Under the pieces are notes generated by a model. The model was not told the origin of the DNA and did not search any database. It saw nothing but the letters and a program-made list of their open reading frames with translations. Position numbers and translations under genes: made by a program. Below are positions 1 to 45,012 of a stretch of 64,000 bases of DNA, piece after piece; positions within the stretch are counted from its first letter, which is position 1; the number at the start of each line of letters is the position of its first letter. Origin of the DNA: Patescibacteria group bacterium (lineage in GTDB: Bacteria; Patescibacteriota; Patescibacteriia; JAXHNJ01); NCBI GenBank assembly GCA_034520665.1, contig JAXHNJ010000002.1, positions 62,230 through 126,229 of the forward strand. Reading direction: 5' to 3'.

Positions 1-607
1 CTATTAAATTCTTCTGATAGTGTAATAATTTTAAAAAATAAGTAAAATTAATAATTATTTTAAAAAATAAATATAAATCTAATTCTTTTATAAAAATTAC
101 TATAGAATTCTTAACTTTACAGGGAATAGTTAAAAAAATAATGCCGTCAGTAACTATATTTTTTTTCATTTTTTCCAATGTAAAAATAGGCCTGTCAAGC
201 GCCCATAATGTATTAAAACACAAAATTAAATCAATATTATTAATATTGGGGAAATTATTATTTAAATTAATATTAAGTGTTTCTATTTTCAAAAAAACAC
301 TATTTTTCCGATAATTATCCTTTAAAGATTCGTTACTATTATCAACAGCATAGACATATAATTTTGATAAATCAAAATTATTATTTTTTAAATTTATTAT
401 GATTTTATTTAATAGTGAACCATTTCCAGAGCCCAAATCCATAATTTTTATTTTCTTCTTTTTAATTCCACTAATTACATTGGTTGCTTCATTTATAACC
501 TCATTAATATATAATTTATACTTACCGTGATTGTAAAATAACTTCTCTTGATACTTTAGATAAGAATACCAATTATCAATTTTATGGGGTTGTGTTTTTT
601 TAAACAT
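1..607 (-). CDS. Class I SAM-dependent methyltransferase, 3'-truncated by window edge
   Basis: My own translation of the minus strand gives MFKKTQPHKIDNWYSYLKYQEKLFYNHGKYKLYINEVINEATNVISGIKKKKIKIMDLGSGNGSL..., with a glycine-rich SAM-binding motif I (DLGSGNG). ATG at 607..605 overlaps the stop of the upstream ORF by 8 nt. The ORF runs off the window start, so it is absent from the ORF track. Confidence 0.5.
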   Translation of the reverse strand, partial: MFKKTQPHKIDNWYSYLKYQEKLFYNHGKYKLYINEVINEATNVISGIKKKKIKIMDLGSGNGSLLNKIIINLKNNNFDLSKLYVYAVDNSNESLKDNYRKNSVFLKIETLNINLNNNFPNINNIDLILCFNTLWALDRPIFTLEKMKKNIVTDGIIFLTIPCKVKNSIVIFIKELDLYLFFKIIINFTYFLKLLHYQKNLI

Positions 608-2123
608 ATTGTAACTTAATAGATTTTTTATTTAATCTTTTTCTATCCATATTCTTAACACAAACCGGATAATAGTCTGCTTTTTTTGAGGCATCAGCAA
701 ATTCTTTGTTTTTATTTTTTAAAACATCAAAAATTGTATTTGCAATTAATAAATTAAGCTTATCCTCTTTTACAACACTACCTAAATTATCTTTTAAATC
801 TATTTCTATTGTAAGTACAGGAGACATCTTATCATTTTTTGAAATATACATAAAAAATACGTTATTGTGTAAATCAGCAATTCTTTTATCTAACAATGCA
901 GACTTAATATTCTCTGTATAAACATTTGCTCCTCTAAAAAAAACAGTGCCGTCACTTCTACCAGCAATATAAATAAAAGGAAGTCTACATAATAATTGGG
1001 TATTTTTCGGCAACTTATTCAAATATTCATTAATATTAAACCCGTAATTATCGAGTAAATTAAACATCTTATCAAAACTTATTACTCCTCCCAAATCATG
1101 AATATTATACCTGATAAGAGGAGAAATGGAACTTGTTGTGGCGATAATCTCATTATTAATTTCCTCAACAAAGAAAAAAAGCGGATTATATTGCAATAGC
1201 ATAGGTCCTGCGTTTTTTAAATTCCCAAAAATATCTTTTGCCAATTTGCCATCTTCCATGCACATTCTTCTTATTTTTATTGATAAAAATGTTTCAGAAG
1301 CAGTCCCCGTCCCAAGTTCTGTTACCCCATAGTTAGAAAATATTTTGGGTATGTTAAAATTCTCTAAATTTATTCCTAGTTTTGAAGCAATATAGTCGCG
1401 CCAATTTTCCGGGAATCCCTCACCCCCAACAACTAAGGAAATAGGCACGCAATTATGAAATCCATTGCTATTTATTTTATCAGCCAAATCTTTAATATAT
1501 GGTGGATAACCAGAAATAATTATATGGTCAAATATTTTCTTAAAATTACTTATCACATCTAATGTAATTTCTATATCTGGCCCGGGATTTATTACAGTTA
1601 ATTTATATTTATCCGAGTAAGCAATTTCACGCATCAATCTTGATAATCTTTCACCACTTGGCCATATTCCATAGGCAAAACAATTAATAAATAATGTTTT
1701 GTGTTTTTTTAATTCGGCCAAATTTAATAATGCAAATTCAAATTGTGATCTAGTCCGATAATCTTCTTCTGGTAATCTAAACCAGTAAGTTGGCTTACCG
1801 GAAAATCCTGAGGTACCCTCGATAGAATGAGATTCACTTATTCTTGGATTAATTGATCTATCAACTAAAGAATATTTATTAATATAATTATGTTTATCTA
1901 TAATTGGTAATTTTTTAAATTCTTGGAAACTGTTTATAGAATATTTTAAATAATCATTTTTTTTTAAAAAGGATCTATAAGCTTTTACATTTTTTATTGC
2001 ATAATTAGCAATCCTAATCGCCCTATTTTCCGATCTTTTATTTATATTTGAAGTTGAAAGAAATTTAATAAATAGATTGCTTACAAGGGGTAAATTATTC
2101 AATTTTGCTATTATGCTCATCAT
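600..2123 (-). CDS. Adenylate-forming enzyme, phenylacetate-CoA ligase (PaaK)/CapK/F390-synthetase-like
   Basis: 507 aa. P-loop-like motif TSGFSGKPTYW near residue 100, as in PaaK-type ANL enzymes. Followed by a hinge and C-terminal domain. Translationally coupled to neighbours (4-nt gap upstream, 8-nt overlap downstream). Confidence 0.55.
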   Translation of the reverse strand: MMSIIAKLNNLPLVSNLFIKFLSTSNINKRSENRAIRIANYAIKNVKAYRSFLKKNDYLKYSINSFQEFKKLPIIDKHNYINKYSLVDRSINPRISESHSIEGTSGFSGKPTYWFRLPEEDYRTRSQFEFALLNLAELKKHKTLFINCFAYGIWPSGERLSRLMREIAYSDKYKLTVINPGPDIEITLDVISNFKKIFDHIIISGYPPYIKDLADKINSNGFHNCVPISLVVGGEGFPENWRDYIASKLGINLENFNIPKIFSNYGVTELGTGTASETFLSIKIRRMCMEDGKLAKDIFGNLKNAGPMLLQYNPLFFFVEEINNEIIATTSSISPLIRYNIHDLGGVISFDKMFNLLDNYGFNINEYLNKLPKNTQLLCRLPFIYIAGRSDGTVFFRGANVYTENIKSALLDKRIADLHNNVFFMYISKNDKMSPVLTIEIDLKDNLGSVVKEDKLNLLIANTIFDVLKNKNKEFADASKKADYYPVCVKNMDRKRLNKKSIKLQYV

Positions 2124-2127
2124 AACA

Positions 2128-2826
2128 TTATATTTTTATCTCTGGAGTTTTTTTTGTCAAATATTTCGAAAAAGCAGGATTCATTTTATTCATATTCTCC
2201 GCCGCTTTATTAATATTTAAACACATAGTAAAAGAGGGGCATTGATGATTAATCTTGCTATAAAAATAAGGACCACTAACTTTTTTAAAACCGAATATAA
2301 GATAACGATCAGTAAAAAGGGTGGATACTGAGATACAAAAATTATTTATTCCGCATTTTTTTGCATAAAGCATAGCCCCCTTAACCAAACCAAAATAAAT
2401 TCTGATATTTTTTCTATAAGTTTTAGATATAATAAATCTACTTAATTCTGCAATATTTTTATTATATTTTCTATATTCTTTCAATGAATAATAACTTTCC
2501 GAAGGAAGTTCTGGATTATATAAATCATTTGGCACAATTCTCATCATACCTATTATTATATTATTTCTATCAATAGCAATAATACTCGCAGTTCCACTTC
2601 GTTTATCAAATTCATCAATTTCTTGTTTTTCTGAATAGTTCTCAGGATTTAAATACCCTTTTTCTAGGCAATAAACTTCGTAACGCAATCTATAAGTTTT
2701 TTTTAATTCATCATCACTACTTGCAATTCTAAACTCTATTATTTCAGTAGAGTTGGATTGAAAAATATACTTAAATAATAAAATCCATTTTATGAAAATT
2801 GCCTTTAGTTTTTTTCTAAAATTCAT
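2128..2826 (-). CDS. GNAT-fold N-acyltransferase, N-acyl amino acid synthase / PEP-CTERM-associated acyltransferase / LuxI-like family (paralog A)
   Basis: 232 aa. Motif YRLRYEVYCLEKGYL followed by a SRF/ELSR-type segment, typical of the Acetyltransf_5 / autoinducer-synthase-like GNATs. Two paralogs lie at 5964..6671 and 9157..9849. Confidence 0.5.
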   Translation of the reverse strand: MNFRKKLKAIFIKWILLFKYIFQSNSTEIIEFRIASSDDELKKTYRLRYEVYCLEKGYLNPENYSEKQEIDEFDKRSGTASIIAIDRNNIIIGMMRIVPNDLYNPELPSESYYSLKEYRKYNKNIAELSRFIISKTYRKNIRIYFGLVKGAMLYAKKCGINNFCISVSTLFTDRYLIFGFKKVSGPYFYSKINHQCPSFTMCLNINKAAENMNKMNPAFSKYLTKKTPEIKI

Positions 2827-2861
2827 TTATTTACTATAAATATTTTACTCACTTCCGACAC

Positions 2862-2895
2862 CTTTCAATTATACCACTATACCACCAAAATCAAA
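2862..2895 (-). promoter_or_regulatory. Sigma-70-like promoter for GNAT-A operon (-35 TTGATT, 15-nt spacer, extended -10 TGgTATAAT)
   Basis: Minus-strand sense tttTTGATTttggtggtatagTGgTATAATtgaaagg lies about 40 nt upstream of the GNAT ATG. The TATAAT box is conserved in all three repeat copies. Confidence 0.4.
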
Positions 2896-3100
2896 AAAAC
2901 TCCAATTTCTCTGGAAGCTAAAAAAGCCCTAATCTAAAAGACTAAAGCCGGTTAATTTAAATTAATTCGTGAAAATAAATTAGTGGTAAAGTCCTGCACC
3001 TGCTGGTACAGCCGGGCGTTTTCTAAAGCTACCGCGGCTTGATTAGAAAGTGTAGAAAGTAGCTCAATATCTTCTTTGGTGTAAGCATCTTTAGAAATTT
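2880..3100 (-). repeat. Conserved ~220 bp element, copy A: 3' end of 7TM-GAF gene + terminator + GNAT promoter
   Basis: About 85-90% nucleotide identity to 6720..6945 and 9890..10105, while the flanking coding sequences are only distantly related at protein level. Confidence 0.7.
2893..2918 (-). terminator. Possible intrinsic terminator of the 7TM-GAF gene (imperfect hairpin GCTTCCAG-agaaa-TTGGAG followed by T7)
   Basis: Hairpin plus a 7-T run immediately 3' of the GAF-gene stop. Conserved in the three repeat copies. The stem is imperfect. Confidence 0.3.
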
Positions 3101-4400
3101 TATGACCTAAGATGAAAAGACCGTTGATTTGATCCTTAACCACAAAAGGTAGAACTATGGATACACCCATTTTTTTTAAAACTTGGGCCTGAGCTAAAAG
3201 CTCCTGGTTTTCTTTTTGCTTTGATCTGGATAATATTTCACCAATCACGACCGGTTTTTTAGTTTCCTCTAAATAGCGACAGAAATGCTGATAAGCACAG
3301 ACCTCTTCCAATTTATTCTTATCAAAACCAAGAATTTTATACAAAGAAAAAGGTTTTTGGCTGTTTCGGTTAGCAATGGCTACGGCTAGATTATCTAGGC
3401 GCATGGCATTTTGAATGGTTTTAATCACAACCTTAACCACCTCATCCAAATTAATAGTTTTAGAAATATTTTTTCCAAATTTTTCTAGAACTTCTTGATA
3501 ATCATAAAGACCAGAAAAGAAGTATTTATTGGCAAATCTTTTTAAAAATTTACTTAAATAATTAAAGCTTAGGAGAAATAAGGGAACAATAATAAGAGCC
3601 GAGAGATAAGAGCCTAAGGCAAAAGGACTTTTGAAGAAAAAATTATCAAACCAAAGAACAAAATAATAAGCGGAAAAAATAAAAAGAGCTAGTCCGACAT
3701 AAATAAATGATTTACGGAGAACAAAGCGGATGTCCATAAGACGGTGCTTAATAATGGAGTATGAAGTAACCCCAATAAAAATTAACATAAATAATGGCGC
3801 ATAAACACTAAAATTAATAATTCCAAACAAAGGTAATATCGCATTAGTTATAATACTAAGAAATGCCGAAATTGATATTCCCCAAAATAAATATTTTATT
3901 TGTTCCCTGAATATACCGCTACTGTTTCTAAACTTTATTAATAGATTTTTAAGAGACAGTCCTACATATATTAAAAAATACGCAATAAAAAAATAATACA
4001 TCACGCCTGGAATAGTTTCAGCACCCCAATCATGAATAATGGTTTCTTTAATATTTAATCTTGTCGGAGTTAATATTATAAAAATAAAAACTGGAATTGC
4101 TAAAATAATAAAATCTTTTTTTGTATATTTTCTTGTTAAATATGGAAAATAATTAGTAAATATCAATAGCAGATAAACTATAAAAATTGGACCAATAATG
4201 GTTAATTTTCCAAAAAATGTTGCAATATCAATATTTTTCGTAGTATCAGCAATAAGCAAAGTAGCTATCCATAAAGAAAGACTAAAAACTAATAATGAGA
4301 ATAATACATTAATAGGATTATTAGATTTTTTCTTATAAATAATAAAACCCAATATAATTGAAATTATTAAACTCGGTAGATATGTAATATATTTTATCAT
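2952..4400 (-). CDS. Polytopic membrane sensor: N-terminal multi-TM (histidine-kinase-type 7TM-like) domain + C-terminal GAF domain, no kinase/output domain
   Basis: 482 aa. About 8 hydrophobic helices in the first 300 aa. C-terminal GAF-like block (LAVAIANRN...LPFVVKDQINGLFILGHK...LSNQAAVALENARLYQQ). Ends without a HisKA/HATPase domain. Confidence 0.5.
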   Translation of the reverse strand: MIKYITYLPSLIISIILGFIIYKKKSNNPINVLFSLLVFSLSLWIATLLIADTTKNIDIATFFGKLTIIGPIFIVYLLLIFTNYFPYLTRKYTKKDFIILAIPVFIFIILTPTRLNIKETIIHDWGAETIPGVMYYFFIAYFLIYVGLSLKNLLIKFRNSSGIFREQIKYLFWGISISAFLSIITNAILPLFGIINFSVYAPLFMLIFIGVTSYSIIKHRLMDIRFVLRKSFIYVGLALFIFSAYYFVLWFDNFFFKSPFALGSYLSALIIVPLFLLSFNYLSKFLKRFANKYFFSGLYDYQEVLEKFGKNISKTINLDEVVKVVIKTIQNAMRLDNLAVAIANRNSQKPFSLYKILGFDKNKLEEVCAYQHFCRYLEETKKPVVIGEILSRSKQKENQELLAQAQVLKKMGVSIVLPFVVKDQINGLFILGHKISKDAYTKEDIELLSTLSNQAAVALENARLYQQVQDFTTNLFSRINLN

Positions 4401-4404
4401 TAGT

Positions 4405-5103
4405 TTAATCCTTTATAGCTATTAACATAATATTTTGACCCGCATAAACAATCTGACTATTAATTACCCTAAAATTATTTTTACTAAATAAACTTATATA
4501 ATCTTTAACGGAAAAAAAATTATAAAATCCCCCTTTTGCTTTTCTATCTATAATTTTATTAAAATACAGCAATATAATATATATTTTTATATTTTTTATA
4601 ATAAAGAATAACCCCCGAAAAAAACCATAATTTTTAAAAAATAACCGACAATCATTCTTAAATATTTTAATATTTTTGAATGATTTAAGTGGATCAGTCA
4701 CCACGATAATACCTCCTTTTTTAATTATTCTATAAAATTCTTTTACAATTAAATGTAAATGCTTTTTTTTAAAAACATACAATGTATTTATGCAGATAAT
4801 TCTATCAAATAAATTATTAGGAAAAAGTAATTTATTGCCTAGGTCTGCATGATATAATTTTGCATTTTTATGTTTTTCATTCAATAACTTCAGGGCTTTT
4901 TTTGAATTATCAATACTATGTACTTCATGGCCCATATCAAGAAGTTTTTTTGAGATTTGACCAGGTCCACATCCAGCATCAAGTATTATGTCTGAATTTC
5001 TGAGTTTTAAATTTTTAACTACTAAATTTAATAATTCATTATACGAGGGAGATAATTCCACAAACTTATTGTATGCCTTGTGATATTTATTCCAGAATTT
5101 CAT
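4405..5103 (-). CDS. Class I SAM-dependent methyltransferase
   Basis: 232 aa. Motif I ILDAGCGPGQ, acidic motif II SIDNS, motif post-I. A 4-nt gap to the downstream 7TM-GAF gene. Confidence 0.6.
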   Translation of the reverse strand: MKFWNKYHKAYNKFVELSPSYNELLNLVVKNLKLRNSDIILDAGCGPGQISKKLLDMGHEVHSIDNSKKALKLLNEKHKNAKLYHADLGNKLLFPNNLFDRIICINTLYVFKKKHLHLIVKEFYRIIKKGGIIVVTDPLKSFKNIKIFKNDCRLFFKNYGFFRGLFFIIKNIKIYIILLYFNKIIDRKAKGGFYNFFSVKDYISLFSKNNFRVINSQIVYAGQNIMLIAIKD

Positions 5104-5177
5104 TATTTTAAAAAATTAAAACTCAAAATTATTAGATTAAGAAGAACGGCGATTATTTGAAAAATTAAATGGCTCAT
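5103..5177 (-). CDS. Candidate 24-aa hydrophobic small ORF (MSHLIFQIIAVLLNLIILSFNFLK), translationally coupled
   Basis: ATG lies 8 nt after the ThiF-A stop. Its TAA overlaps the methyltransferase ATG as TAATG. It is below the ORF-track size cutoff and I found it by manual translation. Confidence 0.25.
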   Translation of the reverse strand: MSHLIFQIIAVLLNLIILSFNFLK

Positions 5178-5184
5178 TTCTTTA

Positions 5185-5952
5185 TTATTTAATAAATTCA
5201 GTTAAATCAATATGATTATATTTAGGGGGAATGTAATTTCTATCGCTAATTATTTTTATAATATTCGTAACTATAAGAGATGAGGTTAAATTTGAAGCAA
5301 CCGCAAGTTGAGGATTAAATTTATTTATCTTTTTAATTAGCTCACTACTTTTATTAATAATATATTCTGGCATTTTTATCATTCCATTTTTATATAAACT
5401 AACAATAAAATCTAATTCACTTTTGGGTTTATTATTTTTTAAAAAATCATCTAAAGGGCCTGTTTTTTTATTAATAGTAATGAGCAAGGCTCCAAATCCT
5501 AAATTCATAGGTATAAAAACAGTTTTATCTTCATCTATAGTTTTATCTATTAATTTATAAAAAATATCATTAAGGTCTAAAGTATTTATAATAAAATCAT
5601 AATTTTTTACTAAGCGTAAGTGATTTGCTTTAAATTCTTTTGAATATGCAGTTATATCAGACGAAGGATTTATTAATTTTATAATACATTCCAAGGATTT
5701 AGCTTTGTTTTTACTTAAAAAATCCAAATTAAATACTTGCCTGTTTAAATTTGAAATTGTAACATTGTCAAAATCAAACAAAGTAAATCTTGCAAATCCC
5801 GTCCTTGTTGCTAATAAGGCAATGTTTCCGCCAAGCCCACAACCAGCAAACATTAAACTTATACTTTTTATCTTTTCTTGCATATCAGAATCAATAAACA
5901 AACAATTTCTGCTAATCATTTCGTTGTAATTGTATTGATATTTGTTTAACAT
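5185..5952 (-). CDS. ThiF/MoeB/HesA-family E1-like adenylyltransferase (paralog A)
   Basis: 255 aa. Rossmann nucleotide motif FAGCGLGGN and the E1 signature ISNLNRQ. Only the adenylation domain is present (no rhodanese domain, no CxxC pairs). Its size resembles TcdA/MccB-core-like enzymes. Confidence 0.6.
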   Translation of the reverse strand: MLNKYQYNYNEMISRNCLFIDSDMQEKIKSISLMFAGCGLGGNIALLATRTGFARFTLFDFDNVTISNLNRQVFNLDFLSKNKAKSLECIIKLINPSSDITAYSKEFKANHLRLVKNYDFIINTLDLNDIFYKLIDKTIDEDKTVFIPMNLGFGALLITINKKTGPLDDFLKNNKPKSELDFIVSLYKNGMIKMPEYIINKSSELIKKINKFNPQLAVASNLTSSLIVTNIIKIISDRNYIPPKYNHIDLTEFIK

Positions 5953-5963
5953 CTTATATTTTT

Positions 5964-6671
5964 TTAAAACTCAAAATTATTTGATTTATAATTATAAAAA
6001 TAGAATAATAATCTATCTTTTTCTTTAACTTCGTCCGCTTTTTTTTTAATGTCAATAAAAAAGGGATAGTTGATGGCATTGAAGCAAAATTTGGGCTCAC
6101 CAATTAATTCAACTTCACCAACATAGTTATCAAGAGTTTTTAGAAACCATTTTTCCGCACAACCGAACCAGAATAAATAATCATTTTGCCTAGAAAAAAG
6201 ATAAATCGCTTTAAACATATCTAGCAAAAGCATTGTCTTCCTATAATCGGGGTGTATCATGAATCTTGATAATTCGGTTATTTTTTCTCGGGGAACATTT
6301 TTTAATCTTTTTACTAAATCAAATTCTTTTTCTGTGGGAAACCCAAGTGGCGAGTTCTTTATTATTCTTGAGGTACCAACAATGTTATTATAACGATCGA
6401 ACGCAATAATATGATCGGCGTATTTATCATATAAATCAGTTTCCTTTTTGTCGGGATACTCTTCTTTATTTAATAAGCCATCAACATTGCAATAAATATT
6501 ATATCTAAATTTATACACGCGCTCCATTAGTTCCTTGTTCTCTTCATCTCTAACAAAAATCAATTTGTATTGTTTATAAGGCCGCCTTAAATGAAACAAT
6601 AAATAAGCGCGCAGTAAAAATATTACTATGGGATTTTTGCTATTTTTTATTTTCTTTGCTGAAAAATTCAT
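5964..6671 (-). CDS. GNAT-fold N-acyltransferase, N-acyl amino acid synthase/LuxI-like (paralog B)
   Basis: 235 aa. Motif YKFRYNIYCNVDGLL and ELSRF. Distant paralog of 2128..2826 and 9157..9849. Confidence 0.5.
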   Translation of the reverse strand: MNFSAKKIKNSKNPIVIFLLRAYLLFHLRRPYKQYKLIFVRDEENKELMERVYKFRYNIYCNVDGLLNKEEYPDKKETDLYDKYADHIIAFDRYNNIVGTSRIIKNSPLGFPTEKEFDLVKRLKNVPREKITELSRFMIHPDYRKTMLLLDMFKAIYLFSRQNDYLFWFGCAEKWFLKTLDNYVGEVELIGEPKFCFNAINYPFFIDIKKKADEVKEKDRLLFYFYNYKSNNFEF

Positions 6672-6719
6672 TATATTACCCTTTGTTCAAATTCTTCTTT
6701 CTTTACCCTGCTTTAATTA

Positions 6720-6945
6720 TACCTAAAAAATTAAAAAAGCTCCAATTTCCCTGGAAGCCAAAAAAGCCCTAATCTAAAAGGTTAAAGCCGGTTGATTTAA
6801 ATTAATTCGTGAAAATAAATTAGTGGTAAAGTCCTGCACTTGCTGGTACAGCCGGGCGTTTTCTAAAGCAATAGAGGCTTGGTTGGTCAGAGAATTAAGA
6901 AGCTGTAGATCTTCTTTAGTTTAGGCATCTTTGGAAATCTTTTCA
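6720..6945 (-). repeat. Conserved ~220 bp element, copy B (GAF 3' end + terminator + promoter)
   Basis: Near-identical to 2880..3100. In this copy the GAF stop TAA is mutated to CAA and an upstream in-frame TAA is present. Confidence 0.7.
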
Positions 6946-8254
6946 CCTAAGACAATAATGCCGATCAATTTATTTTTAATAATCAAAGGCAGACACAAGG
7001 CCGCTTCAATTCTTTTCATATTAGCCTTTAATTTACCGATTTCCGACTTTTCACCCTGCCCATTACTTTTTAAAGACTCCAGTTTTTTGGTAAATAACTG
7101 GTTTTCTTTTTTCTAAAAGATAATTGGTGAGGAAATTATTTCTGACTAGAGAAATGCCGTTAGCTACGGAAAAGCCAATATTGCTCTTAACCTGGTAATT
7201 ATGGGTTTCTTGGTCAAATAATAAAACACCGGTTCGGTCCAGTTTCATGGTGTCTCTAATAGTTTTGACAATGGAAGTCAATGATTTGATCTAAATCAAT
7301 AGAATGAGTCAGTTTCTGGGCCAGTTTTTCCAGAGTAGCCTGGTAGTTGTAAATACTGGCAAAGAAGTATTTGTTGGCAATTCTTTCTAGGTAATTCTTT
7401 AAGGACTCAAAGAGGATTAAGCCGAGCAAAAGGACAATTGGGCCCCAAACACCCGGAGGAATGATTTCCTTGAAATAAGTCATTTCCAGCCAGTAAAGGC
7501 CGAGGGCGAGAAGGATAATTATAATAATGGTGGAAGCATAGATGGCAGTTCTTTTCACGACCAGGCGGATGTCCATGAGGCGGTGGCGGACGATGGCGTA
7601 GGAGGTGAAAACCACGAAAAAAATTATTGACTGAATACCTATATAACTAAATTCTTGAATATTAAATATAGGCAAAATAATGTTAGTTAAAATTGCAATA
7701 ACAGCAGAAATTAATATACCCAAGAAAACATATTTCATTTGCATTCTATGCAACCCTGAACTATTTTTATATTTTATTATTGCTTCGATAAAAGCATAAA
7801 TTATAAATAGAAGGAAATATATAATAAAAAATAAATAAAATGAACCGTAGATAAAATTTGTTCCCCATTCTTGAATATCTACATCTTTTACAATCAAGTT
7901 GGTGTACAGTAAAACTAATAATAATAATGGTACTATATAAATAAATAGTAACTTTTTTTTGGTAATTTCATTTTTATAAAAGGGGAATACGAGACTGAAA
8001 TGGAGTAATATTGCTGGTATTATTATTGGTCCTATAAAAACAATTTTACTTAAACTTAAAGCAATATTCTCATTTATTGCTCTATCTACTAAATAAGTGG
8101 AGAATATCCAAAATCCAATTACAAAAACTAAAAAACCAAAAATAATACTTTCTTTTTTGCCTTTAGATTCATAAAAAACATAAAAACAAAGCAAAAAATT
8201 GAGTAGTAAGATTATCAATGTAATTATTGAAGTAATATCAAATGAAAAATCCAT
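6790..8254 (-). pseudogene. Disrupted paralog of the 7TM-GAF sensor (fragmented into at least three frames)
   Basis: ORF 7256..8254 encodes the intact multi-TM N-terminal region and aligns with 2952..4400 (shared ...HRLMDIR...KYFF...Y.YQ motifs). GAF fragments appear in a different frame (7063..7281). The C-terminal ~50 codons are in a further frame with an internal TAA. Confidence 0.5.
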
Positions 8255-8262
8255 AATTAGTT

Positions 8263-9033
8263 TTATTTATTCGTATAAGCATCAAAAAATATTGGCACTG
8301 GCGCAAAATTAATTTTTACACCTTGAATAAGCTTAATTATTGCTGTTAAAGTAATCGAAGCCACAATATATGATCCAATACAAATTTGCGGATAATACCC
8401 TCTTTTTTTAATTTCTTGAAAAATACTATTAATATTTTTATTTTTTAAAAACGGAAGAGAATACTCTTCTAACGATTTAAATAATTTAATATAAAATTCA
8501 TGATCATTTTTAGGTATGTGATTGCCCCAAATTGATTCAGGCGATGCAGAATGTTTATTAAAAAGCAATAATAATCCTCGAAAACCCAAATTAAAGGGAC
8601 ATAATACAGTTTTATCATTTTTAATAAAATTCGAGATTACTGAAAAATAAATTTTATTAAGATCAACCGTGTTAACTACAAAATCATGTTTTTTTATTAA
8701 ACTTTTCAAAATTTTCTCATTAATATATTTATTTATTACCCTGATATTCGCATTAGAATTAATGTTTATTAAACGTTTTTTTAATCGCTTCGCTTTATTA
8801 TAATTTAAATCATCTAGAATATATGATTGTCTATTTAGATTTGAGATGTTAACTTCATCTCCGTCAGCAATTGTAATATTAGTGAATCCCATTCGAACCG
8901 CCACCTCTGAAATCACACTACCCAAACCACATCCAGCAAAAAGAATGCTAGTTTTTTTTATTTTTTTTTGTAAATTAGAGTCTATATAAATCCAATTTCT
9001 ACTTATAAACGTGTTATAATCAAAATTTTTCAT
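8263..9033 (-). CDS. ThiF/MoeB/HesA-family E1-like adenylyltransferase (paralog B)
   Basis: 256 aa. FAGCGLGS and VNISNLNRQ. About 30-35% identity by eye to 5185..5952. Confidence 0.6.
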   Translation of the reverse strand: MKNFDYNTFISRNWIYIDSNLQKKIKKTSILFAGCGLGSVISEVAVRMGFTNITIADGDEVNISNLNRQSYILDDLNYNKAKRLKKRLININSNANIRVINKYINEKILKSLIKKHDFVVNTVDLNKIYFSVISNFIKNDKTVLCPFNLGFRGLLLLFNKHSASPESIWGNHIPKNDHEFYIKLFKSLEEYSLPFLKNKNINSIFQEIKKRGYYPQICIGSYIVASITLTAIIKLIQGVKINFAPVPIFFDAYTNK

Positions 9034-9156
9034 TTTTTATATTATTGTTGGTTAATTCTTGTTTATCTATTGCATATACTACTCTAAATCCTTGATAAAA
9101 GAAAATGTAAACCTTCATGAATACAAAATATATTTATTCAAAAAAATTATTTATAA

Positions 9157-9849
9157 CTAGTGTATACTATAACTATTCCCTTCACCATTATACTTAATTA
9201 GCCCTTTTTTTAAGTACTTCCATAAGTTTATATTTTCATTTTTAAGGTTTTCTTCCATTTCTGAAATATCTAAAATAAAAGGCGTGGTAATCCCCTGATA
9301 TAATGTCGGCGGACCAATTTTTTTAAAAGGAAAACCAAGTTTAATTAATATGGGGTATAAATTATCATCCATAACGGCAAAAACGTGAGTAATATTCTTT
9401 TCTTTCACAAAAGTGTACATGCCTTTAATCAGGGCGAGAAGGAGAAAATGCTTCCGGTATTTTTTAGCGACAATCAGACGGGATATTTCAGCCAATTTGC
9501 TTCTGTTCTTTTGAAGGATATCAACTTCAATTTTCATGTTTTTCTCTATCGGAAATCCCATTTCTGAGTTTAAAATTAATCTGACCGTGGCGGCTAAATT
9601 TCTAGTTTGTTTTTCTCTTAGTATAAAATGAACTGATTTATCATCATAATTGTCTTTTTCTTTTTTCCCCGGATGTTTATCCTTGTCAATATAACTAAAT
9701 TCCTCGCAAAATACTTCGTAGCGAAGCTTAAAAATTTTTTCTAGTTCAGATTTAGAGTCAGTAGTGTAAAAAATAAACTTATCAGAAAAGCTTCTTTGGA
9801 ACTGCCAAAATTCATAAAATCTTCTTAACTTTTTTATTATTTTTATCAT
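9157..9849 (-). CDS. GNAT-fold N-acyltransferase, N-acyl amino acid synthase/LuxI-like (paralog C)
   Basis: 230 aa. Motif FKLRYEVFCEEFSY and EISRL. Confidence 0.5.
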   Translation of the reverse strand: MIKIIKKLRRFYEFWQFQRSFSDKFIFYTTDSKSELEKIFKLRYEVFCEEFSYIDKDKHPGKKEKDNYDDKSVHFILREKQTRNLAATVRLILNSEMGFPIEKNMKIEVDILQKNRSKLAEISRLIVAKKYRKHFLLLALIKGMYTFVKEKNITHVFAVMDDNLYPILIKLGFPFKKIGPPTLYQGITTPFILDISEMEENLKNENINLWKYLKKGLIKYNGEGNSYSIH

Positions 9850-9889
9850 TTTCTATAACTAGTGCTCACTTCCCTTCTTGTTTTCATTA

Positions 9890-10105
9890 TACCTAAAAAA
9901 TCAAAAAAGCTCTAATTTCTCTGGAAGCCAAAAAAGCCCTAATCTAAAAGGCTAAAGCCGGTTGATTTAAATTAATTCGTGAAAATAAATTAGTAGAAAA
10001 GTCCGGCACCTGCTGGTACAATCGGGTGTTTTCTAAAGCTACCGCCGCTTGATTAGAAAGTGTAGAAAGTAGCTCAATATCTTCTTTGGTGTAGGCGTCT
10101 TTTTT
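9890..10105 (-). repeat. Conserved ~220 bp element, copy C, including a ~135 bp remnant of a 7TM-GAF gene 3' end with no gene body
   Basis: Near-identical to 2880..3100 (closer to copy A than to copy B). Homology stops abruptly at about 10104, some 70 nt before the tRNA-Trp 3' end. Confidence 0.65.
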
Positions 10106-10177: not shown

Positions 10178-10252
10178 TGGCAGGGGCACTAGGATTCGAA
10201 CCTAGAATAAGGGTTTTGGAGACCCTTGTGATAGCCATTTCACTATGCCCCC
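10178..10252 (-). tRNA. tRNA-Trp (anticodon CCA)
   Basis: Hand-folded. Acceptor GGGGGCA/TGCCCCT (one G-U). D-arm GTGA-AATGGCTA-TCAC. Anticodon stem AGGGT/ACCCT with loop CTCCAAA. T-arm CTAGG-TTCGAAT-CCTAG. Encoded CCA. 75 nt. Confidence 0.8.
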
Positions 10253-10523
10253 AATAAAAATCCCGCTTATTGTTTTTATAAACCTATTCTTTTTATTAAA
10301 CCTTGATATGAAGAAACTAAATCTCTTTAACTTTTTTTTCCTCTCTTTAGATGCTTCTCTATTATCATAGGCTTCGTAATACTTAAGCTCCAATGGTCGT
10401 CTGTTTTTTGTTGAATACACATCTCCTCTGTAGTAGTCCATCAATCTATTTTTTAAATTTTCAGTTCTGCCAATATATAATCGTTCATCTTTTTTTGCTT
10501 CTTAAAAAATACACATAATACAT
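10202..10523 (-). pseudogene. GIY-YIG nuclease (YhbQ-like) with a -1/+1 frameshift in an A7 run; 3' end overlaps tRNA-Trp
   Basis: N-terminal MYYVYFLRSKK in one frame (ATG 10523..10521). The rest, DERLYIGRTENLKNRLMDYYRGDVYSTKNRRPLELKYYEAYDNREASKERKKKLK, is in the adjacent frame. The shift sits at the homopolymer 10489..10495. No stop occurs before the ORF runs into the tRNA. Confidence 0.5.
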
Positions 10524-10566
10524 AATATTTCTTTCGCACCATCAAAATCTGTCGTTTATATTTAAA

Positions 10567-10722
10567 CTACTTCACTTCCTTATGTAAAGTATGTTTACGG
10601 CACTTTTTACAATGCTTTTTAATGTTGAGCTTCTCTTTTATTTTCTTTTTATTCTTTTTTGAGTAGTAATTTATATTATTACACTCAGTGCATTTAAGTT
10701 TAATCAGATTGTCTTGGGACAT
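10567..10722 (-). CDS. rpmG: 50S ribosomal protein L33
   Basis: 51 aa (below the ORF-track cutoff). [51 protein letters not shown] has the L33 CxxC...Y.T.KN...CxxC..HT pattern. Confidence 0.7.
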
Positions 10723-10759
10723 AATTTTAAGTTAATTTAAGTTAGTTAGTTTAATTAAG

Positions 10760-11131
10760 TTAATTAAGGTTGTTCTGGCTTGATAAATAGTTAATATATT
10801 TATTCAATCCAATCAATAATCCTTCATAATCCTGATCAACTCTTGTAAATTTCTCTAAGTTCAAATATTTCAAGCCTTTAGCTACTCTTAAATGACTCCT
10901 TATTTCAAAAATTTCTCCTCTTGCTTGGTATAAAATTCTAATCTTATCCTTATAAAAATAACGTCCTTGACTTTCAGCAATATTAGCAATAACAGAATTA
11001 GAAGCTCTTTTCAATTGATTAATGAGGGCATATTTTTCAGTATCAGGAAAATTATTTGTTATTTGATAAATACAAAGAACTAATTTATATCCTTTCTGCC
11101 AAATATTTAATTTAAAGAACGCTTTTACCAT
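10760..11131 (-). CDS. Four-helix-bundle protein (23S rRNA intervening-sequence protein / Avd-like family)
   Basis: 123 aa. FKLNIWQKGYKLVLCIYQIT..FPDTEKYALINQLKRASNSVIANIAES.GRYFYKDKIRILYQARGEIFEI matches the conserved IVS-protein pattern (L.VWQKA..L...IY.....FP..E...L..Q..RAA.S...NIAEG..R....D). Confidence 0.6.
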   Translation of the reverse strand: MVKAFFKLNIWQKGYKLVLCIYQITNNFPDTEKYALINQLKRASNSVIANIAESQGRYFYKDKIRILYQARGEIFEIRSHLRVAKGLKYLNLEKFTRVDQDYEGLLIGLNKYINYLSSQNNLN

Positions 11132-11221
11132 AATTCATTTCTTTTCACGCCACCAAAATGTCTTTATTAATATATCGAAATTAACTAAATCAACTTAAGA
11201 AACCTTAACTAACTTAACTTA

Positions 11222-11347
11222 TGGAGCCGAGGAGAGGAATTGAACCCCCAACCTACTGTTTATCCCGAAGTTCTCGAAATTTTGCCATGGAGCCAGCGCC
11301 TCGGGCCCAGAACCGACGACCTACGGTTTACCCGCCTGCCGAACGCC
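11222..11347 (-). other. Two tandem tRNA 3'-end-like fragments (T-arm-like + acceptor 3' strand + TCCA), not foldable as complete tRNAs
   Basis: Each unit (66 and 60 nt) ends ...GGCTCCA like the neighbouring tRNA-Thr genes and contains a GGTTC-type T-loop-like segment. I could not find a matching 5' acceptor strand. Confidence 0.3.
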
Positions 11348-11423
11348 TGGAGCCGGAGGTGGGAGTCGAACCCACGACTTGCTGTTTACAAAACAGCTAC
11401 TCTGACCACTGAGTTACTCCGGC
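11348..11423 (-). tRNA. tRNA-Thr (anticodon TGT)
   Basis: Hand-folded. GCCGGAG/CTCCGGC acceptor. ACTC-AGTGGTCA-GAGT D-arm. GCTGT-TTTGTAA-ACAGC anticodon arm. GTGGG-TTCGACT-CCCAC T-arm. Encoded CCA. 76 nt. Confidence 0.8.
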
Positions 11424-11560
11424 GCCCGGCGACTGGCGGGCAGACAAAACAGTTGTGCCGATAGCCAGAGGCTATCGAACCTTCTCGATTCGCCAAGCGA
11501 ATCGGGACTCTAGCCAACTGAGCTACGCCGGCAAAAGACAGACTGTTTATCAGCTCAAAG
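11424..11560 (-). other. tRNA-like element with canonical 5' start (GCCGGCGTAGCTCAGTTGGCTAGAGT) but two inserted perfect 7-bp hairpins; no canonical cloverleaf
   Basis: It starts like an Ile/Ala-type tRNA. It is then followed by GATTCGC-ttg-GCGAATC and GATAGCC-tctg-GCTATC hairpins and no matching acceptor 3' strand. Confidence 0.3.
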
Positions 11561-11646
11561 TGGTGGGCCGAGTAGGATTCGAACCTACGAAGCCCGAAGG
11601 CGCCAGATTTACAGTCTGGTGCATTTGACCACTCTGCCACCGACCC
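11561..11646 (-). tRNA. tRNA-Tyr (anticodon GTA), type II with long variable arm
   Basis: Hand-folded. GGGTCGG/TCGGCCC acceptor (two G-U). CCAGA-CTGTAAA-TCTGG anticodon arm. Variable hairpin GCC-ttcg-GGC. GTAGG-TTCGAAT-CCTAC T-arm. ACCA end. 86 nt. Confidence 0.8.
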
Positions 11647-11663
11647 ATTACTTTGAGCTGATT

Positions 11664-11915
11664 TTATTTTAAGATACTATTTAGATATTTTCGGCCTTGG
11701 CCAGATTTTAAAAACTTTTCTCTCTTCATTGCCTCTGACCTAGTTTTAAAAATTTCATGATATATTAATTTCCAAGGTTTTCTTCCTTTAGTATACGGGC
11801 ATTTTCCTTGATTATGTTTTTTAATTCTATTATTCAAATTTACAGTTTGACCCGTTTGACCACTTCGGTATCCACCCACTATTGCTTGCCATCTTTTATT
11901 TTTTTTATAATGCAT
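11664..11915 (-). CDS. GIY-YIG nuclease (YhbQ-like)
   Basis: ORF 11664..11969; the likely start is the internal Met (MHYKKNKRWQAIVGGY...). GQTVNLNNRIKKHNQGKCPYTKGRKPWKLIYHEIFKTRSEAMKREKFLK is the conserved GIY-YIG C-terminal pattern. The extreme N-terminal 18 codons of the track ORF read through a duplicated tRNA-Tyr fragment. Confidence 0.55.
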   Translation of the reverse strand: MHYKKNKRWQAIVGGYRSGQTGQTVNLNNRIKKHNQGKCPYTKGRKPWKLIYHEIFKTRSEAMKREKFLKSGQGRKYLNSILK

Positions 11916-11947
11916 TTGCCTGCCCGCCAAAACGGAAGTGAAGGCGG

Positions 11948-11995
11948 GACCACTCTGCCACCGACCCATTACTTTGAGCCGATTTTATTTAAGTG
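11948..11995 (-). repeat. Duplicate of the tRNA-Tyr 5' end plus ~25 nt of its upstream flank
   Basis: ggaccactctgccaccgacccattactttgagc(c/t)gattttatttaag also occurs at 11620..11668. Together the two copies bracket the GIY-YIG gene. Confidence 0.7.
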
Positions 11996-12140
11996 CTAGC
12001 CCACGCGCAGACTTGTCACCCTACGGGTGATCCTCCAAAGGAGGAAACCGCTAATTCTTTGAAAAAGACACAAAATAAGTTCTACTCCTTACCCCCGACA
12101 TTCGTCGGGGCAAGCATGAAGTTGCTCTACCCGCTACCTC
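11990..12140 (-). pseudogene. Degenerate tRNA-Thr(GGT)-like copy with a 22-nt insertion in the anticodon loop, truncated D-arm and no T-arm
   Basis: GGGTAGAGCAACTTCATG[CTTGCCCCGACGAATGTCGGGG]GTAAGGAGTAG equals the intact neighbour (...GGTAGAGCAACTCCATGGTAAGGAGTAG) once the bracketed 22 nt are removed. The downstream sequence forms unrelated hairpins. Confidence 0.35.
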
Positions 12141-12216
12141 TGGAGCCCACCGTCGGATTTGAACCGACGACCTACTCCTTACCATGGAGTTGCTCTACCA
12201 ACTGAGCTAGGTGGGC
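12141..12216 (-). tRNA. tRNA-Thr (anticodon GGT)
   Basis: Hand-folded. GCCCACC/GGTGGGC acceptor. GCTC-AGTTGGTA-GAGC D-arm. ACTCC-ATGGTAA-GGAGT anticodon arm. GTCGG-TTCAAAT-CCGAC T-arm. Encoded CCA. 76 nt. Confidence 0.8.
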
Positions 12217-39060: not shown

Positions 39061-40581
39061 CTATTTCCCAATTAGCGCGGGTAGATTGTGAATAGTCTCA
39101 CACCAGTAACAAATCGCTTTTTCGTCTCTGACCAAGAAACGGGTTTCGGCTTCCCCGTCATGGTTGGTGATACAATCACCGTTGTGACACTGGCAAAGAC
39201 CACAAATACCCTTGGCTGGTGCAAACTTCATTTTGGTCAGTATACCATCACCTCGAATATGATTGATGGTTGCATCAGGCGCTAACAAAGTAATCAAAGC
39301 ACCGGCTTCGTTTGAAATGAAATCACCGTGTACAACGATAATGTCCTTCTTACATCTCCGACCAGGAGAATCTACAAAGTCAGAAACCGGTACAGTCTGT
39401 TCCGAATTTACCCAGCCCGCTTTGCGAAGCAACGCCTTAATCATGTCACCAGCTCCGGCCGGTAAGTGGTCAATGACTGTTCCCCTTTCCGGACTACCTA
39501 TTGTCATTGTTCCGGGTTTTGTTCGGGCCGGCTTGTTCTCTTCGGAAAGAATTTCGACTTCGCCTCTGGAAAAACCTTGCACCGGCTTATGCTGAGTGGC
39601 CGCGATCCAGATTTCGTTCATCCTTTCTGGAATCCCGAGCCAGGCCTGCGCACTCATAACTAATCTGGGATCACGCCTGATCTCATCACTGATCTCCCCT
39701 CTTCTGGGGCCGGGGTGCATAATAATACAACCCTTTTTTGCCCGTTCAAGAAAAGCAAGATTAGTAATATAGACGCGCTGGATGCGATCGAAATCAGTTG
39801 GAACAGCAATTCTTTTCTGCTGAACACGGGTAAGATAGATAACATCGCAATCCAAAAGAAGTTCAAGATTACCTTCTTCTTCCCCCACAATATTTAGACC
39901 ATCCCGATAAGGCGACTCCAGTTCAAGACCGCCGAAGGGCACGAGGCTTACTTCCGGCTCAAAGGGTTTCAAAACACTCAGAATAGAATGAACCGTTCGG
40001 CCATACTTTAAGTCGCCGCCGATGCCGATTTTCATTCCTTTTTTGAGCTTACCGGAAATATCCAGAGTCAGAAGATCTAGGCGCCCCTGAGTCGGATGGC
40101 GATGCTTACCGTCACCAGCGTTGATCACTGAGATTTGATAGCCCATAGACTGTAGTTTTTCGGCCAGGAATTTCGGCTCGCCTTCTACCGAGGTTCGAAG
40201 GATATAAATCCCGGCTCCCTGAATCATATGCTGTTCTGCGTCATCCAACGGGCTTTCACCTTTACCGCCTCTCGAAGTCGCTGCCATGTGAATAACTACC
40301 GGATCTAAACCGAGATTTTTGGCCGCTCTGCGAAAAGAACCGGCGGTTCTGGTTGATTCTTCCAGAATTTGAATGATCACATTGGTCGGCGGTGTATTAC
40401 GAGTTATATTCCCGCTTACCAAGGCGCTGTCTTCAAACATCTTGATAGCCGGAGGAAAAGCTCCTCGATTAATCTTTCGATAGGCTTCAACAGCCACCGG
40501 CACCATGCTTCTGGCCCCCTCAAGAATCTCCTGTACCTCTTCCATGGTATAGTCAGGTTTTCCCAGAATACTTGTTGTCAT
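39061..40581 (-). CDS. pyrBI: Aspartate carbamoyltransferase catalytic chain fused to regulatory chain (PyrB-PyrI fusion)
   Basis: 506 aa. STRTAGSF (STRTR), HPTQ and HPGP motifs of ATCase in the first ~330 aa. The C-terminal ~150 aa has the PyrI-like pattern with a Cys4 zinc site (CGLCQCHNGDC...CYWC). GC clearly elevated. Confidence 0.65.
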   Translation of the reverse strand: MTTSILGKPDYTMEEVQEILEGARSMVPVAVEAYRKINRGAFPPAIKMFEDSALVSGNITRNTPPTNVIIQILEESTRTAGSFRRAAKNLGLDPVVIHMAATSRGGKGESPLDDAEQHMIQGAGIYILRTSVEGEPKFLAEKLQSMGYQISVINAGDGKHRHPTQGRLDLLTLDISGKLKKGMKIGIGGDLKYGRTVHSILSVLKPFEPEVSLVPFGGLELESPYRDGLNIVGEEEGNLELLLDCDVIYLTRVQQKRIAVPTDFDRIQRVYITNLAFLERAKKGCIIMHPGPRRGEISDEIRRDPRLVMSAQAWLGIPERMNEIWIAATQHKPVQGFSRGEVEILSEENKPARTKPGTMTIGSPERGTVIDHLPAGAGDMIKALLRKAGWVNSEQTVPVSDFVDSPGRRCKKDIIVVHGDFISNEAGALITLLAPDATINHIRGDGILTKMKFAPAKGICGLCQCHNGDCITNHDGEAETRFLVRDEKAICYWCETIHNLPALIGK

Positions 40582-43901: not shown

Positions 43902-44034
43902 TTTTCCTCCTAATTTTATTTTAAATGAGCAATTTAAATTATTTTACAAAAATAAGCGAAATTGTCAAGGACTTTAAAAAAATAAGTAGCTCTACTTAAT
44001 TAGTAGAACTACTTCTTGATAATTTTATAAAATA

Positions 44035-44916: not shown

Positions 44917-45012
44917 GATATAAGGAACTTAACAGTATAAACTTACATTATAACAAAAATATGTCAAGTCTTATAAAAAACCCCCGTTTTTAATAAACAG
45001 GGGCTATAAATA

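Follow-up and report, generated by a model that had tools for sequence, protein, structure and literature searches.

A three-unit array of GNAT, adenylating-enzyme, and 7TM-GAF receptor genes in a Patescibacteria genome as candidate signal-synthase/receptor cassettes

In a 64,000-nt stretch of a metagenome-assembled Patescibacteria group bacterium genome (GenBank assembly GCA_034520665.1, contig JAXHNJ010000002.1, positions 62,230 to 126,229, forward strand; hereafter the window), the first ~10 kb carry three minus-strand operons ("units"), each headed by a GNAT-type acyltransferase gene and each ending in a gene for a membrane protein with a HisKA_7TM (seven-transmembrane) domain and a GAF domain. 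We read each unit as a self-contained autoinducer-type signal-synthase/receptor cassette; this reading rests on genomic context and is held with moderate confidence. The units follow a general scheme, in which the GNAT gene is followed by a gene for an adenylating enzyme (ThiF or PaaK-like), an optional methyltransferase gene, and the 7TM-GAF receptor gene. The features of the array, given in the direction of transcription, are as follows:

Upstream boundary: 10178..10252, minus strand, tRNA-Trp gene (ARAGORN and Rfam)
Unit 3: 9157..9849, minus strand, GNAT3, predicted N-acyl-amino-acid-synthase (NAS)-type acyltransferase
Unit 3: 8263..9033, minus strand, ThiF-b, predicted stand-alone AclA-like ThiF adenylyltransferase/cyclase
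Unit 3: 7256..8254, minus strand, 7TM-b, 332-aa open reading frame (ORF) with a HisKA_7TM module
Unit 3: ~6680..7255, minus strand, degraded GAF segment of the unit-3 receptor
Unit 2: 5964..6671, minus strand, GNAT2, predicted NAS-type acyltransferase
Unit 2: 5185..5952, minus strand, ThiF-a, predicted stand-alone AclA-like ThiF
Unit 2: 4405..5103, minus strand, class I S-adenosylmethionine (SAM)-dependent methyltransferase, between ThiF-a and the receptor
Unit 2: 2952..4400, minus strand, 7TM-GAF-a, 482-aa kinase-less receptor
Unit 1: 2128..2826, minus strand, GNAT1, predicted NAS-type acyltransferase
Unit 1: 600..2123, minus strand, 507-aa PaaK-like adenylate-forming ligase, in the slot held by ThiF in units 2 and 3
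Unit 1: 1..607, minus strand, SAM methyltransferase, cut by the window start

Spacing within the units is tight, with gaps or overlaps of 4–11 nt (e.g., 11 nt between GNAT2 and ThiF-a) except for two gaps of 81 and 123 nt, the latter between GNAT3 and ThiF-b. Terminator hairpins and a TATAAT box are found between the units, and the array is located directly downstream of the tRNA-Trp gene; its G+C content (23–32% across the first 10 kb) compares to 30–41% for the remaining window. Identity between paralogs from different units is low (27–33% for the GNATs, 40% for the ThiFs, and 36% for the 7TM proteins). This layout is essentially the one described in an earlier note on this DNA, which had placed the three GNAT genes and the two stand-alone, adenylation-only ThiF genes at exactly these coordinates, had described promoters and terminators bounding the operons, and had called the paralogs highly diverged. 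However, the PaaK-like ligase and both methyltransferases had been missed, and the claim of three GNAT-ThiF-7TM/GAF copies holds for units 2 and 3; unit 1 has the ligase and a methyltransferase and no ThiF, and its receptor gene lies past the window start. Independent Logan contigs from run SRR26473340 match window positions 1–2929 and 7412–9197 with 100% identity, and one of these contigs (L053) reaches 996 nt past the window start.

All three GNATs passed the Pfam gathering thresholds of both FeeM (PF21926; 27 bits) and Acetyltransf_5 (PF13444; 22.4 bits), with scores of 59.3 and 53.5 bits for GNAT1, 40 and 59.1 bits for GNAT2, and 59.2 and 60.4 bits for GNAT3, respectively. Autoind_synth (PF00765; 24 bits) was passed by GNAT1 (27.1 bits) and GNAT3 (36.1 bits), while GNAT2 showed no hit; the NAS models outscored Autoind_synth, which belongs to the same superfamily, for all three proteins. 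The best PDB match of GNAT3 was 5w8c, an acyl-CoA-type autoinducer synthase (E 3e-6), and the GNATs of the cassettes keep the motifs LRYxVYC, ExDxYD, and E(I/L)SRL. The GNATs are thus probably of the NAS/LuxI type, in agreement with the family proposed for them earlier, and N-acylation of an amino acid is predicted from this family membership; a RimI-type acetyltransferase identity was ruled out by the FeeM and PF13444 scores. Membership in the PEP-CTERM-associated family, also proposed earlier, is indicated by score for GNAT3, which reached 165.8 bits against TIGR03694 (the NCBIfam model for PEP-CTERM/exosortase-associated acyltransferases; cut-off 111.95 bits), but not for GNAT1 (85.1 bits) or GNAT2 (89.9 bits).

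Weak matches to the ornithine N-acyltransferase OlsB (E 1e-7 to 7e-12) were also observed. Together with the Patescibacteria host, whose group usually lacks fatty-acid synthesis, these matches would fit a different explanation, in which an OlsB-like GNAT makes membrane aminolipids for a lipid-dependent bacterium, the ThiF or ligase alters their head group, and the 7TM proteins keep watch over the composition of the membrane. We regard this as improbable, as the OlsB scores (30–45 bits) are far from the cut-offs (320–350 bits), no OlsA-type O-acyltransferase is present, and the same cassette is found in lipid-competent phyla; three divergent copies, each with its own receptor, would furthermore be unexpected for bulk lipid synthesis.

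ThiF-a and ThiF-b (255–256 aa) consist of the adenylation domain alone and scored 97 and 104 bits, respectively, against PF00899. The closest solved structure is that of AclA from Tenacibaculum discolor (PDB 9EGB, 9EGC, and 9EGD, "in complex with substrate", released 2025-08-13), which ThiF-b matches with an E-value of 6e-33 (9EGB and 9EGC); an AlphaFold2 (AF2) model of ThiF-b (mean predicted local distance difference test score, pLDDT, 87.7) aligns to AclA with a Foldseek TM score of 0.86 at 31% identity. No paper on AclA was found in the literature that could be searched. In an alignment of the ThiF clade, the GxGxxG loop, DxD, NLNRQ, K80, and D124 are invariant, as are all residues that bind the nucleotide or Mg; neither a conserved Cys nor a zinc motif was found. 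ThiF proteins of the oxazolone-synthetase type are defined by an adenylation site plus a conserved Asp needed for cyclisation (D217 in TrzS); the model representing this type (Rv1355c/TrzS) matched the ThiFs with just 36 bits and over the N-terminal half only. Judged through this model, the window ThiFs are assigned by sequence to an AclA-like clade that is distinct from the OxzB/TyzB/TrzS subfamily.

Both ThiFs scored below every curated ThiF/MoeB/TcdA/MccB-type cut-off (e.g., 97.7 vs. 159 bits for the best model, PRK08644, and 56.5 vs. 376 bits for MoeB), and the cassettes contain no ThiS/MoaD neighbor and no small beta-grasp ORF; a true ThiF or MoeB acting with a ThiS/MoaD carrier was rejected on these grounds and on the absence of a conserved Cys. 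Fold-level matches to MccB, PaaA, ThiF, MoeB, and Cap2 might still be taken to suggest that the ThiF acts on the C-terminus of a peptide or protein, be it as an enzyme of the microcin-C type or of peptides made by the ribosome and modified after translation (RiPPs), as an activator of a ThiS/MoaD sulfur carrier, or in a Cap2-like conjugation, with the GNAT in a tailoring or immunity role; a GNAT and a methyltransferase-like gene likewise occur in mcc clusters (PMC12250964), and an MccB-like pathway had been named earlier as an alternative. We consider this explanation largely refuted and very improbable. The ThiFs lack the N-terminal peptide-clamp domain of MccB, which aligns to them only from residue 92, and the sole short ORF between GNAT3 and ThiF-b (9020–9118; 32 codons) is not conserved, having no counterpart in unit 2 or in the related locus L002. 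The GNATs are of the FeeM/LuxI type and not of the RimL/MccE type, and no E2 or JAB gene is present. PADLOC returned just generic E1 hits, confined to the E1 portion of the Cap2-like E1-E2 models of CBASS (cyclic oligonucleotide-based antiphage signaling system), and one methyltransferase hit, and an anti-phage system was rejected as well.

A profile built from the ThiF clade retrieved 357 cluster representatives at E < 1e-30, most of them stand-alone proteins of 245–265 aa. Loci were taken from species-representative genomes, metagenomes, and exact-protein look-ups, and were annotated with trimmed local hidden Markov models (HMMs) checked with Pfam; neighbors were counted in 41 distinct loci with a called ThiF. 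A GNAT gene was adjacent to or near ThiF in 30 of these 41 loci, a gene for a LuxR-type (GerE) regulator was near ThiF in 17, and a gene for a HisKA_7TM sensor was adjacent or near in 13. The full GNAT-ThiF-7TM order is repeated in eight loci (L002, L003, L008, L033, L035, L037, L038, and L039), which come from an unclassified metagenome-assembled genome (MAG), a gammaproteobacterial MAG, and several metagenomes; the trio, for which the earlier note had called for gene-neighborhood searches, thus recurs elsewhere. The closest relatives of the ThiFs also include proteins in which an N-terminal FeeM/PF13444 GNAT and the ThiF are fused in a single polypeptide (P0028, P0040, and P0045); no nitroreductase domain was found in the fused relatives tested.

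The type of sensor or regulator that accompanies the enzymes differs among loci. A complete histidine kinase is found in L003, L010, L011, L012, L035, L037, and L054. In Bacteroidota, the layout comprises a divergently transcribed gene for a LuxR-type protein, a divergent GNAT-like gene, and ThiF (no Autoind_bind domain hit was obtained in these LuxR-type GerE proteins), and in Planctomycetota an ECF-sigma-like gene takes the place of the regulator. Three of the kinase-containing loci (L010–L012; from Dehalococcoidaceae, Coriobacteriia, and Eubacteriales MAGs) have no GNAT; after ThiF, they encode a GH3-/PaaK-like ligase and a HisKA_7TM kinase. The unit-1 layout (GNAT, PaaK-like ligase, methyltransferase, and 7TM kinase) is kept in another Patescibacteria genome (L054/L055).

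Across nine cassettes, pairwise identities of the GNAT, the ThiF, and the 7TM domain are correlated (Mantel r 0.59–0.77, p ≤ 0.007), and all three unit-3 proteins match the same external loci best (43–61% identity vs. 28–37% to unit 2), including a ThiF-adjacent receptor in L033 that is 61% identical to 7TM-b. Therefore, the cassettes move as units. Each unit is nearer to cassettes of other organisms than to its neighbor, so that a recent tandem duplication was rejected and the units represent old, distinct cassette types rather than recent local duplicates. The diversifying turnover of three paralogs that had been suggested earlier is hence only partly right, as the units belong to separate lineages of long standing that a conserved junction connects (see below).

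The unit-1 ligase illustrates that the ThiF slot can be filled by another enzyme. This protein showed weak NCBIfam matches to PaaK, F390 synthetase, and FlxY and no Pfam hit; its 73 homologs are mostly from Patescibacteria, carry the source name 'phenylacetate-CoA ligase family', and adjoin ThiF in L011 and L012. The occurrence of PaaK-like or GH3 enzymes in or next to this slot (unit 1, L054/L055, and L010–L012) fits a shared need for carboxylate chemistry on an acyl-amino-acid scaffold. The unit-1 methyltransferase has a DLGSGNG motif and is complete in L053 (243 aa; Methyltransf_31/12), and the unit-2 methyltransferase matches Methyltransf_25/11/31/23. The best NCBIfam match of the latter is the DVU_1556-family methyltransferase, and the ligase weakly matches the DVU_1553 family; these two family names bear adjacent Desulfovibrio vulgaris locus tags, and both matches are below cut-off.

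Some related loci contain further genes. Extended clusters upstream of the GNAT-ThiF-7TM genes were observed in L002 (61–4651), L008 (385–6283), and L039 (296–4646); these hold genes for an asparaginase, a 193-aa unknown protein, an alpha/beta hydrolase, and a ~570-aa AMP-binding ligase as well as two 7TM-only or 7TM-GAF-only genes. In L034 (2173–4416) and L037 (2736–4988), a gene for a 750-aa Nitroreductase+YcaO fusion is divergent from the (GNAT-)ThiF-7TM cassette; this gene could encode an oxidase/cyclodehydratase partner or be an unrelated neighbor.

The combination of a GNAT and a ThiF is not categorically new, because it has a published biochemical precedent and because the ThiF clade has a solved structure. 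N-acyl oxazolones are formed by a NAS-type acyltransferase, a ThiF-like ATP-dependent cyclase, and a flavin oxidase in OxzAB of Pseudoalteromonas rubra (de Rond et al., 10.1101/2020.06.11.147165), TyzACB (PMC10404671), and TrzAS of Mycobacterium tuberculosis (PMC12856293; reviewed in PMC12596934). These systems resemble the units in the tight operon with a NAS-type acyltransferase gene beside a ThiF-like gene and in the suggested signaling role. They differ in that the window ThiFs are stand-alone proteins of ~255 aa from another clade and in that the operon here includes a 7TM sensor; no such sensor gene is reported in the Oxz, Tyz, or Trz systems. AclA is from the same stand-alone clade, whose Bacteroidota members are located beside a divergent GNAT-like gene; the neighboring regulator there is of the LuxR type, as compared to the 7TM sensor here. 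LuxI/LuxR shares with the units a GNAT-fold, acyl-amino-acid-forming synthase that is genetically paired with a receptor, and the Bacteroidota relatives even show a divergent LuxR-type/synthase layout. Unlike in LuxI/LuxR, ring closure here would need a separate ATP-dependent ThiF and not the synthase itself, and the receptor is a 7TM membrane protein rather than a cytoplasmic LuxR; no LuxR-type gene was found in the 64-kb window. For units 1 and 2, the Phc system of Ralstonia provides a functional analogy, as the SAM methyltransferase PhcB makes a 3-hydroxy fatty acid methyl ester, thus masking a lipid carboxylate, and the membrane histidine kinase PhcS senses the product; Phc is not known to include a GNAT or a ThiF. 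The earlier statement that no described system is built from these parts therefore does not hold for the GNAT+ThiF pair but does hold for the coupling to a 7TM sensor: in the literature searched, we found no description of an oxidase-less AclA-type variant, of 7TM or LuxR-type sensor coupling across phyla, or of a junction-linked array of kinase-less receptors in the candidate phyla radiation (CPR).

A further related system, which also bears on the main alternative, is the stieleriacine cluster of Stieleria, for which a NAS, a methyltransferase, a ThiF, and a nitroreductase have been proposed and in which the role of ThiF is called 'still enigmatic' (PMC12479983). Unit 2 contains the core of this set (i.e., the NAS, the SAM methyltransferase, and the ThiF), while the stieleriacine clusters have a nitroreductase and no dedicated 7TM receptor. 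The units may, by this alternative, be ordinary specialised-metabolite clusters that make a bioactive lipoamino acid (antimicrobial, surfactant, or host-directed, like stieleriacines or tyrazolones), and the 7TM-GAF protein or kinase would sense envelope or environmental cues and not the product. N-acyl tyrosines do have antimicrobial activity (PMC7293339), and both the extended clusters of L002, L008, and L039, with their AMP-binding ligase, alpha/beta hydrolase, and asparaginase, and the nitroreductase-YcaO fusion near the L034 and L037 cassettes would fit such clusters. We nevertheless regard this explanation as rather unlikely. Only the GNAT is a more constant partner than the sensor or regulator, whose type varies (7TM kinase, 7TM-GAF, LuxR, or ECF sigma factor) and whose position is kept, and the 7TM domains co-vary with the enzymes. 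In addition, no exporter, immunity or self-resistance gene, precursor peptide, or ubiquitin-like protein was found in the cassettes, and three different cassettes, each with its own receptor, are present in a contig of ~0.7 Mb.

The receptors of the array lack an output domain. 7TM-GAF-a is composed of a HisKA_7TM domain (PF16927, 54.9 bits; threshold 28.6), two further transmembrane helices, and a cytoplasmic GAF domain (39 bits), and its AF2 model (pLDDT 84) shows a helical membrane bundle followed by GAF; its homologs are mostly histidine kinases of 720–750 aa. In unit 3, 7TM-b scored 65.3 bits against PF16927, and the GAF segment that follows contains at least two frameshifts and one in-frame stop, as determined by three-frame translation and alignment to the paralogs. 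An assembly error may account for these frameshifts because the segment is repeated and because no independent contig spans 6680–7255. The unit-1 7TM gene lies just past the window start (L053:3051–3923, the fourth gene of L053) and matches the 7TM model; its residues 207–291 are 100% identical to the start of P0163, a 'GAF domain-containing protein' from the same genome with 95–100% identity to the GAF of 7TM-GAF-a. Therefore, unit 1 also ends in a 7TM-GAF receptor, of ~488 aa. For the AF2 model of the HisKA_7TM domain (window 2952–3650), the PDB fold search returned no solved bacterial counterpart, and its sole PDB matches are weak and to the 7TM bundle of class-C G-protein-coupled receptors (calcium-sensing receptor, CaSR; E ~4e-4).

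All three array receptors end right after GAF and lack the HisKA and HATPase_c transmitter. Their common end (..QVQDFT|TNLFSRINLN) is the exact point at which P0162, a full-length 7TM-GAF-HisKA-HATPase kinase (738 aa) encoded outside the window in the same genome, runs on into HisKA/HATPase. P0162 shows 55% identity overall and 70–85% identity in the linker segment after the 7TM part and at the GAF tail; the genome thus encodes at least four mosaic receptor paralogs, one of them full-length. An annotation artefact was rejected as the cause of the truncation in units 1 and 2, because the same kinase-less architecture recurs elsewhere (454–511 aa; L039, P0170, P0171, P0199, and P0237) and because the stop sits in the conserved junction. 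In another Patescibacteria MAG (L052:8795–15335), an aminotransferase, a kinase-less 7TM-GAF protein, a GNAT-like protein of 275 aa, a methyltransferase, and a full-length 7TM-GAF kinase are encoded in this order, with no ThiF; the kinase-less and full-length receptors of this locus have 828 nt in common at 97.6% identity, and their 7TM parts are different.

The domain order of the receptors corresponds to the N-terminal two-thirds of PrsK (7TM+GAF), and 7TM-GAF-a aligns to PrsK (TIGR02916) over the whole 7TM+GAF part (positions 25–466 of 679). Together with the TIGR03694 score of GNAT3, this might indicate the regulatory part of a PEP-CTERM/exosortase-type system, in which the acyltransferase and a PrsK-like sensor control exopolysaccharide or protein-sorting genes; a link of NAS genes to PEP-CTERM/exosortase loci has been reported (Craig et al. 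2011, as cited in PMC7293339). Such a system seems a poor candidate here. The alignment to PrsK scores 51 bits vs. a cut-off of 300, the kinase half is missing, two of the three GNATs are below the TIGR03694 cut-off, and no exosortase, PEP-CTERM protein, or PrsR-type regulator was found in the 64-kb window. The ThiF is a further difference, as it is to our knowledge not part of the described PEP-CTERM set.

Between the units and in front of unit 3, a block of ~230 nt is present in three copies, all on the minus strand:

9883..10105, minus strand, junction copy 3 (direct repeat D1): orphan GAF tail of ~46 codons (..KDAYTKEDIELLS..ENTRLYQQVPDFSTNLFSRINLNQ..) abutting tRNA-Trp, two hairpins (terminator 9953–9935), and TATAAT before GNAT3
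6716..6935, minus strand, junction copy 2: final ~220 nt of the degraded unit-3 GAF
2868..3095, minus strand, junction copy 1: GAF tail (last ~140 nt of 7TM-GAF-a), stop, two terminator hairpins (terminator 2949–2925), and promoter box before GNAT1

Each block comprises the last ~46 codons of the receptor GAF with the stop codon, a pair of terminator hairpins, and the -10 box that serves the next GNAT gene. The copies are 82–87% identical, with a core of at least 90% identity in the three-way alignment, while the flanking cassette proteins are only 27–40% identical. A structured RNA was rejected, as Rfam finds just the four tRNAs of the window and the sequence of the block reads as a -10 box preceded by two terminator hairpins. 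Gene conversion is one possible explanation of this conservation; cassettes may also have been inserted through recombination within the GAF tail, or selection may favor a shared dimer interface, with kinase-less sensors acting through one full-length kinase. Signal specificities may be diversified or stacked by recombination, as suggested by the mosaic, kinase-less receptors and the conserved junction.

If the units are signal-synthase/receptor cassettes, the NAS-type GNAT would, judging from its family, link an amino acid to an acyl group, fatty or other. The AclA-like ThiF of units 2 and 3 would then adenylate the free carboxylate with ATP, and intramolecular capture of the adenylate would mask the carboxylate; as a precedent for this step, the ThiF parts of OxzB, TyzB, and TrzS cyclise N-acyl amino acids to give 5(4H)-oxazolones. 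In TrzS, this cyclisation comes first, and a saturated cyclised intermediate is obtained if the oxidase is disabled (PMC12856293); as there is no flavin oxidase in the units, the product here would be a saturated oxazolone or another lactone- or lactam-type ring. Unit 1 may use its PaaK-like ligase and methyltransferase instead, and unit 2 may add a methyltransferase step. The resulting lipoamino-acid derivative would be neutral, membrane-soluble, and probably labile or short-lived, and the HisKA_7TM domain that the last gene of the operon encodes would detect it within the membrane. In relatives, this sensor is a complete histidine kinase, for which Bacteroidota substitute the divergently transcribed LuxR-type regulator. 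P0162, the full-length kinase, is the most likely partner through which the three kinase-less array receptors act, or which they modulate; the GAF tail and the start of the signaling helix that they share with this kinase suggest heterodimerisation. The comparative evidence thus favors the combination of a signal synthase, a carboxylate-activating tailoring enzyme, and a membrane receptor that the earlier note had put forward as a plausible reading; the GNATs did not turn out to be of an ordinary RimI type, nor the ThiFs to be bona fide MoeB/ThiF proteins with a MoaD/ThiS carrier. The genes present, their arrangement in operons, their families, the fusions, and the gene order that recurs among phyla are observed; the chemistry, the match of ligand and receptor, and the heterodimers are inferred.

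Several observations weigh against the signal-cassette reading. The flavin oxidase/nitroreductase that defines OxzAB, TyzACB, and TrzAS is absent here and in 39 of the 41 related loci; no nitroreductase domain was found in the window cassettes, and only L034 and L037 among the related loci have the divergent nitroreductase-YcaO gene. The ThiFs also fall outside the OxzB/TyzB/TrzS subfamily. Their reaction could differ from cyclisation. The array receptors are without an output domain, one of them is apparently a pseudogene, and no response regulator was found in the 64-kb window. The sensor might just as well be adjacent because an unrelated stimulus regulates a biosynthetic cluster. Finally, the sample of loci is biased to close relatives, including several related Bacteroidota species, because the loci were retrieved by one peptide pattern.

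We tentatively propose, as a wider hypothesis, that an AclA-type ThiF, a NAS-type GNAT (or a GH3/PaaK-like ligase), and a dedicated sensor may represent a widespread, unrecognised class of autoinducer systems. As signals, this class would use lipoamino acids with a masked carboxylate (e.g., saturated oxazolones, lactone- or lactam-type rings, or methyl esters). In Bacteroidota, LuxR-type proteins would read them, and HisKA_7TM proteins would do so in Patescibacteria, Proteobacteria, Nitrospirota, Chloroflexota, and Firmicutes. Patescibacteria would stack several channels in an array that is joined by a recombination junction inside the receptor gene, with interchangeable kinase-less modules that feed into, or swap onto, one full-length kinase. 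The authors of the oxazolone work note the resemblance of oxazolones to acyl-homoserine lactones (AHLs), raise signaling as a role, and describe what these compounds do physiologically as 'a major unresolved question' (PMC12856293); the cassettes described here supply candidate ligand-receptor pairs for N-acyl amino acids and oxazolones, repeatedly and in many phyla. If true, the proposal would also provide a ligand class for HisKA_7TM, a sensor domain without a ligand entry in Pfam or NCBIfam, and LuxR-linked signals might be produced in Bacteroidota without a classical LuxI. A reduced Patescibacteria genome (~0.7 Mb contig) would be spending >11 kb on three parallel signaling channels, an investment that bears on how Patescibacteria episymbionts talk to hosts or kin. 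The main risk to the novelty of these findings is a publication on AclA.

A number of other features were observed in the window. Upstream of the array, four tRNA genes (Trp, Thr, Tyr, and Thr; 10178–12216) are interleaved with a 23S_rRNA_IVP/bAvd-like four-helix gene (10760–11131), and GIY-YIG fragments (11664–11969, with a possible remnant at 10202–10444) are located among these tRNA genes; the cassettes of L054 are also interspersed with genes of the bAvd-like four-helix and GIY-YIG types. The region from 31779 to 34763 encodes a 994-aa protein in which NosD/right-handed beta-helix repeats and a MopE-type metal-binding motif accompany a papain-type C1 peptidase. A PyrB-PyrI fusion, with the catalytic and regulatory chains of aspartate carbamoyltransferase in a single 506-aa ORF, was identified at 39061–40581, and three tandem sigma-70 paralogs, each with regions 1.2, 2, 3, and 4, were identified at 43062–45885.

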